From Thermoplasmata archaeon (lineage in GTDB: Archaea > Thermoplasmatota > Thermoplasmata > Lutacidiplasmatales > UBA184): DNA of 64,000 nt. Position 1 is the stretch's first letter, and every line of letters starts with the position of its first letter. Location of the stretch: the NCBI GenBank assembly GCA_021817605.1, contig JAKAUN010000002.1:3676-67675 (forward strand), read 5' to 3'. The notes beneath the pieces were generated by a model. The model did no database searches. It had not been told where the DNA came from and was given only the letters and a program-made list of their open reading frames with translations. Shown piece after piece: positions 22,241 through 41,189 of the stretch. A program made the position numbers and the translations under genes.

Positions 22241-22417
22241 CCCTCGCTTAGGTCGACCCGTTCGAACCGCGCAGAACCGCTTCGGGATTCGGGAGCAAAC
22301 ACCATCTCCGCTACCTTACCTTAGATTTGAGAGGGTCAGCTGAATAAATACCAGTTGCCCCCCGGGCCAAGGACCGGCGGTCGGCGTCCGCTTTTCGGCC
22401 CTCGGGAAGCAACAACG

Positions 22418-35747: not shown

Positions 35748-37078
35748 TGGCGCAGCCGAGCGAGGGAGGTTTCGCCGGGGTCCTCCACCGGGAATCGTTC
35801 CCTGCCTTCCTCGCCGCCGGGGCGGCGCAGTTCGCCGGCCCGTCCACGGCCTTCGTCGTGCTGATCTTCTCGGTGGCGGTCGCCTACCCGCGCGCCGACT
35901 CCTCCTTTGTCGCCGTCGCGCTCGCCCTCATGGGACTCTCTTCGGCCCTGCCGACGCTCGCCGGGGCGTTCTTCGCCGGACCGCTGGCGGACCGGCACGA
36001 CCGGCATTTGCTCATGCGCACGGCGAACCTCGTCTCCCTCGTCGCCACCGCGCTGCTGGCGGTCGATCTGTTCTTCGCTCCCTCGAAAAAGGTCGCGCTG
36101 CCGCTGTTGCCGGGCTTCTACCTCCCCCTCTGGCTGCTCCTTCTCTATCCCGTCTGGGCAGGGCTCATCACGACGGCGACCCTCTTCCGACCCGCCTACA
36201 ATACCTCCGTCCCCAAGTTCGTCTCGACCGCCGAGCTCGGCAGGGCCAACGGCCTCATCTACGCCATCGCCGCCGCGGTGAGCGCCGGCGGCACGCTCCT
36301 GGTCGGGGTCGTCCTCACGCTCGGCGGCAGCGTGCTCGCGCTCTCGATACCGTTCGTGCTCTTCCTTGCCACGCAGGTCGCGCTCCTCCTCGTGACCACG
36401 GACCTCAAGGTCCGTCGGGAGGGTACCCCGCCGAAGATCCTCCGCTTCGCGGCCGAGGGGCTCTCCTACCTCGTCCGACGCCGCGACCTCTTCGAGGTGA
36501 CGATCGCGGCGTTGTTCGTCAACCTCCTGGCTGCGGTCGCCTTCGTCGAGCTCGGCCTCTTCGTGCGGGACTCGCTCGGACTGCTCTCGGGGATATGGTA
36601 CGGCGCCATGATCTCGGCGTCGACCGCGGGAGCGGCGTGCGGCCTGCTCGCGATCTCCCGTATCCCCTTCGAAAAGCACGCCGGCCTCTGGCTCATCGTG
36701 CTGGTCCTGGCGATGGGAGGCGCCCTGTCCGCGCTCTCGTTCGTCCGGAACATCTGGCTCGCCCTGCCGATCATCTTCGTCTACGGCCTGATGCCGGGGA
36801 TGATCCAGACCGTGTTCCTCTCCGCGGTCCAGGCGACGGTGCCGGACGAGGTGATGGGACGGGTCTTCGCCGCGGACGAGGTCGGCAGCTACATGCTCGT
36901 GCCGGTCGGCCAGAGCCTCGGCGGCCTCCTCGCCGTCGAGGTCGGGGTGGAGGGGGCCTACCTGTTCGCCGGCGGGTCGATGGTGGCTCTCGGCGTCGTC
37001 ATGCTCGGAACGTTCGGTTCGCTCCGGGGCCTCAGGATCCGCGTGGACGAGCCGGGGGCCGGGCCGACGGCGAGCTAA
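35748..37078 (+). CDS. MFS transporter; start uncertain, placed near GTG 35748
   Basis: Track ORF 35603..37078. The hydrophobic 12-TM body begins after FRESFPAFLAAGAAQFAG. The upstream 48 codons overlap the divergent pelota start and look non-coding. Confidence 0.7.
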
Positions 37079-38043
37079 CGCGCCGGCGCGCGCGACGCCC
37101 TCGAAGGTCCAAAGGGGATGCAGGCGGTGTTGTACCAGTCGCGACTCGGGCCGAGGGAACGCGCGAAACCGAGCCGCTGGTAGAGGGCGACGGCCGGCTG
37201 GTTGCCCTCCGTGACGTTGAGGTAGATCCGCTTCGCCGCCGGTGCCGCTCGGAGCCTCCGGAGGCTCTCAAGGAGCGTCCGGCGGCCGAGCCCCTGGCCT
37301 TGGTGCCCCGGGTCGACCGCGACATCGGCCAGGAGGACCCCGTCGGGCCGACGGACCGCCAGGACCTGGGCGACGGGCTTCCCCTCGATCTCGAGGACGA
37401 CCGAGCCGTCCGGGTCGAGCTCGCCGAAGCGCCCGTCCAGGATGTCGCGGACCTCCCGCAGCGCGTCCGAGGCCTCGTCCGCTTCCTGAAGGAAGAGGTA
37501 GCGGTCGAAGCGGTCGTGGTAGGCGCGGCGGTGGACCTCGGCAAGGCTCGCGAGGTCCGAGGCGACCACCCCCCTCACCCTACCGGGACCTTCCGACGTT
37601 TCCCGAGGGAGGTCCCGGGCGACGGGCAGTTGCATCTCGCTGCGACCGTAGGGGGCGAACCCGAGCCCGGTCATCAGCCGCTCTTCCTCCGCCGGGGCCA
37701 CCCCGGCGAGCGGCCCCGGAGCGAAGACGAGCCGACCCACCTCACCGATCACCGCGGCGAGGGCCGAAGCATACGCTTCCGCCGAGGCAGTGCCGGCGTT
37801 CAGGTAGAAGAGGTCCAGGTTCGTTCCCATCGCCGTCGCTGCCGACCACGCGGCCAGGCCCACCGGACGGCCGTCGAGCCGAAGGAGCCGGGCCACGAGG
37901 CGGCCGGCCCTACGGTCCGCTTCGAGCGACGCGTGCCAGGCGCTGGCATCGACCGCCGGACCCGCACGCGCCTCGACCGCCCGGAGCAACCACCGGCTCG
38001 CCACCTCGGGCGCGTCGTCCAACCCCGCGAGCTCGATCTTCAC
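37075..38043 (-). CDS. GNAT-family N-acetyltransferase, two-lobed
   Basis: GTG at codon 46 of track ORF 37075..38178. C-terminal motif A (VAVDPGHQGQGLGRRTLLESL...LNVTEGNQPAVALYQRLGF). Confidence 0.7.
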   Translation of the reverse strand: MKIELAGLDDAPEVASRWLLRAVEARAGPAVDASAWHASLEADRRAGRLVARLLRLDGRPVGLAAWSAATAMGTNLDLFYLNAGTASAEAYASALAAVIGEVGRLVFAPGPLAGVAPAEEERLMTGLGFAPYGRSEMQLPVARDLPRETSEGPGRVRGVVASDLASLAEVHRRAYHDRFDRYLFLQEADEASDALREVRDILDGRFGELDPDGSVVLEIEGKPVAQVLAVRRPDGVLLADVAVDPGHQGQGLGRRTLLESLRRLRAAPAAKRIYLNVTEGNQPAVALYQRLGFARSLGPSRDWYNTACIPFGPSRASRAPAR

Positions 38044-38272
38044 GGTGCCTCCTGTCCGCGCCGGTACAAAGGCCCTCCTTGGGAGGAGGACGACCCCCGG
38101 GTGCGGCCGCCCGAGGGACGGACACTCGCCTCGCCGAGCTCCTCGGTCGCGCTCGTCGCGATGCTTGCGGGGGAGCACGGGGGATCGAAACCGCGAGAGG
38201 AGCTTACGGTCCGTTCGGGTCGCGCCGGGTCAGGTGGCCCGCTCAAGCAGCCACACCGCGGCCGGGGCCAAC

Positions 38273-38279
38273 CTATATA
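38273..38279 (+). promoter_or_regulatory. Strong TATA box (CTATATA) in a locally AT-rich segment, ~60 nt upstream of the RHH gene ATG
   Basis: AACCTATATAGG stands out against ~70% GC flanks. The predicted TSS near 38300 gives a ~35-nt leader carrying the palindrome. Confidence 0.5.
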
Positions 38280-38301
38280 GGCGACCTCAGATATGTCAAT
38301 C

Positions 38302-38330
38302 GTCAGACAAAGAACCATATCTTGTCTGAC
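38302..38330. promoter_or_regulatory. Palindromic operator candidate GTCAGACAA-N11-TTGTCTGAC between the TATA box and the RHH start codon
   Basis: 9-bp arms with one extra A in the left arm; the spacer is AGAACCATATC. Additional CAATC direct repeats lie at 38297-38301 and 38331-38335. Confidence 0.45.
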
Positions 38331-38334
38331 AATC

Positions 38335-38700
38335 ATGTCCGACACGTCCGAGCGGGTCACCGTCCGCATCCCACAAGAGCTGCTGGAGAAGCTCAAGCAG
38401 ATTCAGCTATCCAAGGGGACGGCGACGATCTCCGACACGATACGGGAGGGGCTCGAGCAGTACATCGAGCTCAACCTGCCCCCCCAGCACATCCGCAAGG
38501 TCGTGGTCGAGCTCTCCCGCCAGGACAACAGCCGGCTCGAGGAGTTCGTCCGGGAAGGCAACTCCGTCAGCGTCGACGACGCCGTCCGCTCGGCCGTGCG
38601 GGAGTACATCCGCAGCCGGATCGATCAGCTGGCTCCGGCGTCCCGCTCCCCGCGCCGCGAGGGCGATACCGTCGCCGCCGCCGGCTCTCCGCCGGCGTGA
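38335..38700 (+). CDS. Tandem ribbon-helix-helix (CopG/Arc-like) DNA-binding protein
   Basis: MSDTSERVTVRIPQELLEKLKQIQLSKGTATISDTIREGLEQYIE forms a first beta-alpha-alpha unit. HIRKVVVELSRQDNSRLEEFVREGNSVSVDDAVRSAVREYIRS forms a second. The second ATG of track ORF 38293..38700 was chosen because the first 14 codons cover the operator palindrome. Confidence 0.7.
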   Translation: MSDTSERVTVRIPQELLEKLKQIQLSKGTATISDTIREGLEQYIELNLPPQHIRKVVVELSRQDNSRLEEFVREGNSVSVDDAVRSAVREYIRSRIDQLAPASRSPRREGDTVAAAGSPPA

Positions 38701-38714
38701 TAGGTCCCCTGTCC

Positions 38715-39740
38715 ATGTTCGACGGTCCGACGGCGGACGCCCTCCACGGCCTCTCGCTCGCCCCGTCGATCGCGGTCGTCGGGCTCGGAGGCGCCGGTTC
38801 GGAGGCGGTCGACGACCTCGTCAACCTCGGCCTGCCGGGGGCGCGCTCGCTCGCGGTGAACACCGACGCCCGCCACCTCAGCCACGTCCGGGCCGAGGAG
38901 CGGATCCTTCTCGGCCAGCGAGAGCTCGGCGGACGCGGGAGCGGCGGCGACCGTGCGGCGGTCCTTCGTGCCGCCGAGGACAGCCGCGAGGAGATCCTCC
39001 GAAGGCTCTCACGGTTCGAGCTCGTCTTCCTTCTCGCCGGCCTCGGAGGCGGAACCGGGAGCGCCCTGCTCCCGTTCCTCGTCAAGGAGCTCAGGAAGAC
39101 CGAGGCGCTCCCCGTGCCGGTCGTCTTCCTGCCGTTCCGCGTGGAGCTCGAGGCGAACCCCGGCCGTCGGCAGAACGTCGAGGAGACGATCGCCGAGCTC
39201 GAAGGACTCGGGGGCCTCCTCCTCGTCCTCGCCAACGAGAAGCTCCGCCGGTTCGAGTCGCTGCCGGTCCACCGCGTCTTCGGCGTGCGCAACGCCTACC
39301 TCCACGCCCTGATCGCCAACCTGGTCGACATCGTCGACCATCCCTCGCAACTCAACGTCGATCTCGCGAGCGTGAAGAGCCACCTTCGTCAGTCGGGGCT
39401 CTCGACCCTGATCATCGGCGAGGAGCACATCTCCGAGCCGGCCCGGCTCGTGCAGCGCGCCCTCTCCGATTCGCTCCTTGATTTCGAGCTCCCCTACCGG
39501 CCGAGCGCGCTCGTCCACCTGGAAGGGGGAACGAACCTCACGCTCCGCGTCCTGGACGAGGTGCTCCACACCGTTCGGGAGCACCTCGGCGAGCCGGCCC
39601 GCCTCACCTTCGGGGCGAGGATCCGCCCGGAACCGTGCGAGGTCGTCCGACTGACCGCTGTCCTCGGCGGGCTCAAGCCCCGCACCGTCCACGAGGCCGT
39701 CGCCCGGCTTCCCCCGTCGGCTCCGCTCGCCGCCCGCTAG
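38715..39740 (+). CDS. Short divergent FtsZ/tubulin-family GTPase, 341 aa. T7-loop Asp is replaced by Ser and there is no C-terminal linker/tail
   Basis: Internal ATG of read-through ORF 37242..39740, 14 nt after the RHH stop. IAVVGLGGAGSEAVDDL (G1 box), AVNTDARHL, ELVFLLAGLGGGTGSALLP (the tubulin signature GGGTGSG-like), VVFLPFRVE...ANEKL, QLNVDLASVKS (cf. FtsZ NVDFADV). Confidence 0.8.
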   Translation: MFDGPTADALHGLSLAPSIAVVGLGGAGSEAVDDLVNLGLPGARSLAVNTDARHLSHVRAEERILLGQRELGGRGSGGDRAAVLRAAEDSREEILRRLSRFELVFLLAGLGGGTGSALLPFLVKELRKTEALPVPVVFLPFRVELEANPGRRQNVEETIAELEGLGGLLLVLANEKLRRFESLPVHRVFGVRNAYLHALIANLVDIVDHPSQLNVDLASVKSHLRQSGLSTLIIGEEHISEPARLVQRALSDSLLDFELPYRPSALVHLEGGTNLTLRVLDEVLHTVREHLGEPARLTFGARIRPEPCEVVRLTAVLGGLKPRTVHEAVARLPPSAPLAAR

Positions 39741-41091: not shown

Positions 41092-41189
41092 GAACGAATC
41101 TATCCTCTGGTTCGCTATTTATATCTTGGCTGAGCCCCAAGGACCGAAAGGAACGACCCCATCCCGCGCGGGCGGCCGTCCGAGGCTCT

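Follow-up and report, generated by a model that had tools for sequence, protein, structure and literature searches.

We analysed a 64-kb stretch of archaeal DNA (hereafter the window; ~70% G+C) in which the gene for a 121-amino-acid (aa) ribbon-helix-helix (RHH) protein resembling the regulator CdrS is followed by the gene for an FtsZ homologue. Directly upstream of the RHH gene lies a 29-bp palindrome, which is very probably a conserved DNA operator of the cdrS promoter. The original prediction, made by reading the letters of the window, had described this palindrome as the arms GTCAGACAA and TTGTCTGAC separated by an 11-nt spacer, and we recovered both arms at their expected positions, each unique in the window (table 1). 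The site has a 9-N11-9 layout consisting of two 7-bp self-symmetric cores, GTCAGAC and GTCTGAC, with AA/TT flanks. The core motif GTCWGAC occurs only twice in the 64 kb, both times in the operator, while shuffled sequences contain it 6.2 +/- 2.5 times; its rarity outside the operator may reflect mild avoidance. No second operator site was found elsewhere in the window, and the orthologous loci that we fetched contain one pair of cores each.

Conservation of the palindrome in orthologous loci had been named as a test of its function. The RHH protein has 370 close homologues, of which the named ones all come from Thermoplasmata metagenome-assembled genomes. We collected 80 loci by a protein-based scan with one genome per species, which together with the window gave 81 loci selected by protein and not by motif. 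The pattern GTCNGAC-N15-GTCNGAC was present in all 81, always with a core-to-core distance of 22 bp; with the motif's confinement to the operator in the window, this places the palindrome well outside chance. The gap between the right core and the second of the two candidate ATG codons (38335 in the window) was 4 nt in 75 loci; the other six had 3 or 5 nt. Among the 79 protein-anchored orthologues, the left arm was exact in 72 and the right arm in 74. Majority-base frequencies, computed on the protein-anchored loci (n = 79-81), were 0.99 for each 9-nt arm, compared, for the adjacent gene, with 0.59 at four-fold sites of invariant codons and 0.95-0.97 at first and second codon positions. The arms are therefore more constrained than the positions that determine amino acids. 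Arm conservation and fixed spacing, together with the 11-bp lattice described below, indicate very strong purifying selection and agree with the earlier proposal that the palindrome behaves as a DNA operator.

When metagenomes were scanned for the exact 9-N11-9 pattern, 120 contigs matched; in 103 of them the pattern lay directly upstream of a cdrS-type gene. The 121-aa gene began 4-5 nt downstream in 86 of the 120 contigs, the 121-aa locus was cut by the contig end in 11, and six contigs from a different lineage (Methanomicrobiales) carried a short 59-aa CdrS gene and then an FtsZ gene. Another 17 contigs represented unrelated low-GC or bacterial contexts; these, as well as one viral contig with the exact palindrome, had no RHH or FtsZ gene nearby, and we excluded them, taking them for unrelated hairpins or for matches by chance. 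Two groups of low-GC contigs (L135/L138/L195 and L085/L154) carry the exact 29-nt palindrome with conserved flanks and resemble unrelated bacterial hairpins.

The Methanomicrobiales revealed a more varied use of the same core. We inspected eight cdrS loci (Methanosphaerula, Methanoregulaceae, Methanocalculus, Methanolinea, Methanofollis, Methanocorpusculum-like, Methanoculleus-like and contig L209), and each leader contained three to six copies of GTCWGAC(AA). They were arranged as inverted pairs 22 bp apart, as an everted pair 22 bp apart or as the abutting palindrome CAGACAATTGTCTG; the Methanolinea leader contained plain direct repeats (GTCAGACAAatGTCAGACAAac) and the Methanocorpusculum-like contig six sites at 11-bp intervals. 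Across the eight leaders, core pair spacing was a multiple of 11 bp in 50 of 54 cases, which none of 1000 random placements matched. A self-symmetric 7-bp core phased at 11 bp points to an operator for dimeric DNA-binding proteins such as those of the RHH class. The mixed-profile homologue search listed Methanomicrobiales only; wider lineages were reached through a search of representatives and three contig look-ups. Cores lie at -94, -72 and -17 in a cdrS-ftsZ locus of Methanosarcinales-like type, and in another tandem-RHH lineage the RHH gene is preceded by GTCGGAC-N15-GTCCGAC and followed by GNAT and HerA-like genes instead of ftsZ. On one haloarchaeal contig (L212, ~680-860), the cdrL-cdrS intergenic region contains GTAAGAC/GTCTTAC repeats, including the perfect palindrome GTAAGACGGCCGTCTTAC; the upstream gene encodes CdrL (RHH, CdrL_M and double zinc ribbon). 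Judging from this one locus, the GTAAGAC repeat may be the halophile version of the box.

The palindrome is placed on what appears to be a promoter. The AT-rich string CTATATAGG that the original prediction had taken for a TATA element lies at 38273-38281 and is unique in the window, and the AT-rich island around it was borne out, with the 60 nt from 38274 having the highest A+T content of the window (62% versus ~30% overall) and 80-nt pieces giving the same result. The claim that the string is the best TATA match in 64 kb failed, because longer A/T runs exist, such as TATTTATAT at 41116 and AATAAATA at 22343. In the orthologue alignment, counting from the first base of the left core, the TATA box occupies -30 to -22, and its majority-base frequency is 0.855 versus 0.46 in the next 8 nt (79 protein-anchored loci). 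By conservation and placement, the predicted TATA box is real. Scans for sigma-70 promoters and intrinsic terminators found nothing in the window, as expected for an archaeon.

The centre of the TATA box is ~25 nt before 38302. In leaderless genes of the window the centre of the A/T box lies 21-32 nt upstream of the start codon, and in the tRNA-Phe of the window the box lies 28 nt upstream of the 5' end. Applying these distances, we predict that transcription starts on the left arm, at ~38302. All 145 sequences have C or T at position -1, and G is invariant at position 0. The leader would then be 33 nt long and almost wholly operator, which would be unusual. Since the A/T boxes of the window sit 21-32 nt before start codons, the data suggest that the organism mostly makes leaderless mRNAs and that the cdrS leader is an exception. 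The window positions noted for genes with a visible A/T box are 41116-41124 and 41091, and also 10847, 13607, 28813 and 41771. The palindrome had been placed between the transcription start and the second ATG. It does precede the second ATG, but it overlaps the predicted start instead of lying downstream of it.

The interval from the TATA box to the left arm contains a further conserved block, GATATGTCAATC, which is missing in the most divergent orthologues, L075 and L080, both of which retain the palindrome. The GTCAATC within this block equals GTCAGAC at five of seven positions. The block could be an initiator, a melting region or an extra half-site. We rejected a second TATA box and a helically phased third operator site, given its 7-bp offset from the left core and its absence from L075 and L080. 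The CAATC direct repeats that were said to flank the palindrome are both present, at 38297 and 38330; the right-hand copy is not conserved (orthologues read gggc, ggac or gagc), so the repeat is coincidental. The spacer of most orthologues contains a Shine-Dalgarno-like AGGGGT 15-19 nt before the ATG (e.g. L003, 2477-2488), and the window reads AACCATATC.

ATG codons are present at both 38293 and 38335 in the window, and the annotated lengths of the homologues, 121 or 135 aa, show that this pair of ATGs recurs. The original prediction had argued that 38293 is not the start codon, and the orthologues agree: the frame from the equivalent upstream ATG is open in 40 of the 81 loci, interrupted by an in-frame stop in 33 and out of frame in six, and the ATG is absent in two. 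Protein conservation begins at 38335. As the upstream ATG is stopped, out of frame or absent in 41 of the 81 loci, 38335 is the start codon, giving the 121-aa product.

The 121-aa protein is predicted to be a tandem of two CdrS-like RHH units. Besides the Pfam RHH_1 match in its first half (table 1), aa 56-97 match the NCBIfam CdrS model (E 7.5e-5, 22.7 bits); the cut-off of this haloarchaeal model is 100, and the short CdrS of Methanoculleus scores 58.8 bits on it. The second half also gives weak matches to RHH_1 and RHH_8. In BLASTP against the Methanoculleus CdrS, both aa 6-45 and aa 55-100 align (E 6e-5 and 5e-4, respectively). An AlphaFold2 model built on a 31-sequence alignment had a predicted local distance difference test (pLDDT) score of 49, and we used only its secondary structure, which displays the helix-helix pattern twice at low confidence. 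Proteins of 97-135 aa with two matched stretches were common among the 150 best representatives in a CdrS profile search; judged by these matches, the tandem single-chain form of CdrS is widespread. The beta-strand of RHH proteins reads the DNA major groove, and its sequence R-[VI]-T-[VI]-R-[IL]-P is common to both protein families, the 121-aa tandem and the short CdrS.

We think it probable that the encoded RHH protein binds the operator and represses its own operon. In the mechanism we propose, the TATA box would direct transcription to start at ~38302, and the two cores, 22 bp or about two helical turns apart, would face the same side of the DNA and extend over the transcription start and the entire 33-nt leader to within 4 nt of the ATG at 38335. 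The binder would most likely be the product of the first gene, with the 121-aa tandem RHH acting as a single-chain pseudo-dimer and one molecule occupying each arm, an arrangement that would suit a pair of inverted, asymmetric 9-mers a constant distance apart. Bound protein would block polymerase recruitment or promoter escape, resulting in negative feedback on both the regulator and FtsZ. Repression is suggested because the operator covers the predicted start site, and the same position-over-start reasoning has been used for aCcr1 at cdvA (PMC9976878). Others have suggested that CdrS feeds back on its own expression (PMC12699388).

Several observations weigh against an operator of this kind under the control of its own RHH product. 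Two concern the nature of the element: the central base of each core is still ~97% conserved, and orthologue L080 swaps both central bases in a compensated A-U to U-A change, both of which a hairpin predicts likewise. A palindrome acting mainly as an RNA hairpin at the mRNA 5' end, 4 nt before the AUG, would control mRNA stability or translation initiation. Both arms are inside the transcript if the predicted start is correct, a 44-nt leader RNA folds into a 9-11 bp stem (-13.7 kcal/mol, z-score -3.7 versus shuffles), L002, L005 and L021 have a G.U change, and in many orthologues the Shine-Dalgarno-like AGGGGT would be in the loop. However, six of the nine stem pairs are invariant, so covariation is lacking; the variable internal pair changes without compensation four times and with it once (47 distinct sequences), and the covariation score was equalled or exceeded in 87 of 500 shuffles. 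The loop has the same length in all 81 loci, a constancy seldom seen in hairpins, and the identity of arm sequences across distant classes indicates sequence-specific recognition rather than structure alone. An Rfam search returned no family near its gathering score for the leader element. Most decisively, the same motif forms direct repeats on the 11-bp lattice in Methanomicrobiales and the Methanosarcinales-like locus, and because direct repeats cannot pair, a DNA element is favoured and a main role as an RNA hairpin is quite unlikely. That the region is instead coding, with translation from 38293 giving the 135-aa form, is hardly credible. That frame is open in the window, and 37 of 120 listed homologues are annotated as 135 aa from the equivalent ATG, but in addition to the disrupted upstream ATGs of the orthologues, the extra peptide (M-S-[IF]-V-R-Q-xxxx-C-L-T-x-M) is conserved solely at the residues encoded by the palindrome arms (VRQ = GTCAGACAA, CLT = TGTCTGAC) and variable between them, and 38293 is only 16 nt from the TATA centre, too near for a leaderless start.

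The remaining points concern the binder and the sign of regulation. At pLDDT 49, the structural model is too poor to confirm the tandem RHH fold in three dimensions. In Haloferax volcanii, the 18 listed CdrS sites from chromatin immunoprecipitation sequencing do not include the cdrS promoter, and most of them are upstream of promoters, which fits activation (PMC8406309). For Halobacterium salinarum, binding upstream of cdrS-ftsZ2 is reported for a separate protein, CdrL, and ftsZ2 is said to be activated by CdrS (PMC7439475). The locus studied here could thus depart from the halobacterial case in the sign of regulation and even in the identity of the binder. These data, and the different repeat (GTAAGAC/GTCTTAC) on the haloarchaeal cdrL-cdrS contig L212, would also fit a DNA operator bound by a transcription factor encoded elsewhere, which we consider unlikely. 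CdrL is reported to be confined to Halobacteria (PMC7439475), and no second RHH gene adjoining the operon was seen in the window. The motif accompanies the RHH gene in Thermoplasmata, Methanomicrobiales and the Methanosarcinales-like contig, and also in a lineage in which ftsZ is not adjacent, and this association supports autoregulation. In addition, arrays of RHH dimers typically have self-symmetric 7-bp cores in phase with the helical turns, and the beta-strand residues are identical in the lineages that share the motif. We thus continue to favour the operon's own RHH protein as the probable repressor.

The RHH and FtsZ genes of the window are on the same strand and separated by 14 nt, and essentially every orthologous locus of sufficient length has an FtsZ gene after the RHH gene. 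The window FtsZ shares 32% identity with the FtsZ encoded after cdrS in Methanosphaerula palustris, and its match to a generic ftsZ model is below the model's cut-off. The pair cdrS-ftsZ2 was described in Halobacteria as an operon with an RHH regulator and is widely syntenic in Euryarchaeota (PMC7439475, PMC8406309). By gene order and homology, the predicted operon of the window is probably the Thermoplasmata version of it. A GNAT acetyltransferase gene is the divergent neighbour of the operon. On contig L213 (1291-2787), genes for a GNAT acetyltransferase and then a HerA-like ATPase follow a tandem-RHH regulator, without ftsZ; the presence of a GNAT gene near the RHH regulator both there and in the window may be a recurring association. 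The window also contains a Pelota/eRF1-like gene and the tRNA-Phe gene, which is preceded by TTTATA.

Table 1. Coordinates of the cdrS promoter features and neighbouring genes in the window.
Feature	Position	Strand	Remarks
GNAT acetyltransferase gene	37078-38046	minus	divergent neighbour of the RHH-FtsZ operon
Predicted TATA box CCTATATAG	38272-38280	+	clade consensus TTCATATAC or TCTATATAC
Conserved block GATATGTCAATC	38290-38301	+	majority-base frequency 0.90 over -13 to -1
Predicted transcription start zone	38300-38309	+	from TATA distance calibration; G38302 likeliest, preceded by a pyrimidine
Left operator arm GTCAGACAA	38302-38310	+	self-symmetric core GTCAGAC, 38302-38308
Spacer	38311-38321	+	fixed length, variable sequence; majority-base frequency of inner 9 nt 0.67
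Right operator arm TTGTCTGAC	38322-38330	+	core GTCTGAC, 38324-38330
Gene for CdrS-like 121-aa protein (predicted tandem RHH)	38335-38700	+	Pfam RHH_1 at aa 7-45, E 1.1e-7, above cut-off
FtsZ homologue gene	38715-39740	+	Pfam Tubulin (E 2e-27) and FtsZ_C

To our knowledge, CdrS is the only transcription factor tied to FtsZ-based division in archaea. In the searchable literature we found no description of an operator at its own promoter, nor of the operator GTCAGAC-N15-GTCTGAC, its 11-bp lattice in methanogens, an electrophoretic mobility shift assay (EMSA) with a CdrS operator, or a single-chain CdrS. Within that literature, what appears to be new is the operator sequence, its 22- or 11-bp phasing common to Thermoplasmata, Methanomicrobiales and a Methanosarcinales-like lineage, and the tandem regulator; the cdrS-ftsZ2 module to which the operator belongs and, by analogy, the logic of an RHH autoregulatory operator or aCcr1-box are already known. 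The analysis yields a defined 29-bp site for testing by EMSA, shared with its phasing by at least three euryarchaeal orders, and indicates a widespread single-chain form of CdrS. It also corrects the start codon of the gene family, in which about one-third of the listed database entries start 14 codons too early, and indicates that many methanogen entries have false N-terminal extensions that are translated operator repeats. Such extensions read MSIVRQ...CLT, MSDKQQTNVRQ... or MSDVRQLSVRQ..., and the entries concerned are among P0005-P0105 (135 aa) and P0154-P0240 (Methanomicrobiales, 70-98 aa).

More tentatively, the GTC-W-GAC lattice might be an ancestral 'CdrS box' that stood before cdrS prior to the split of Thermoplasmata, Methanomicrobia, Methanosarcinia and Halobacteria, became GTAAGAC in halophiles and is related to the aCcr1-box (GTA-N-TAC) in logic and half-site shape; we regard this as possible rather than probable. 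If true, one ancient autoregulatory RHH switch would serve archaeal cell division, and the motif would allow the division regulon of uncultured archaea to be read from sequence.

In comparison with the Halobacteria, the Thermoplasmata locus likewise has a small RHH regulator gene immediately upstream of ftsZ on the same strand. The cdrS mRNA of Haloferax is drawn with a 5' untranslated region (PMC8406309), comparable to the leader predicted here, and the Halobacterium operon has an RHH protein (CdrL) bound upstream of it (PMC7439475), as we propose for the RHH protein of the window. In contrast, the halobacterial CdrS is ~60 aa long, while the tandem RHH protein here has 121 aa and stays far below the cut-off of the CdrS model (22.7 versus 100 bits). 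Halobacteria also have a cdrL gene, for which there is no counterpart here, and the variant repeat GTAAGAC, seen on one haloarchaeal contig.

The aCcr1 system of Sulfolobales resembles the present one in that a small RHH cell-cycle regulator acts at boxes located at equivalent positions of cdvA promoters across an order, with blocked formation of the pre-initiation complex as the proposed mechanism (PMC9976878). The motifs differ, however: the aCcr1-box is A(T/G)G(A)TA(G)A(T/G)TACN (GTA-N-TAC), compared with GTC-W-GAC here. The aCcr1 target, cdvA, belongs to ESCRT-type division, and the regulator is encoded outside the operon that it represses. The 121-aa protein does not belong to the aCcr1 family, scoring 23.5 bits on the aCcr1_fam model, whose cut-off is 60.

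Bacterial and plasmid RHH autorepressors include CopG, Arc, Mnt, MetJ and omega, and TraY combines two RHH repeats in one chain, as predicted for the 121-aa protein. CopG, Arc, Mnt, MetJ and omega share with the protein described here the RHH fold and the use of short direct or inverted subsites phased on one face of the DNA, and their operators overlap the regulator's own promoter, which would also be the case here given the predicted start. Unlike these systems, the Thermoplasmata promoter is archaeal, with a TATA box and no -10/-35 elements, and its two sites are separated by two helical turns, which leaves the slot between them empty. The operon under its control encodes a cytoskeletal division protein, whereas the bacterial autorepressors serve plasmid and phage functions.

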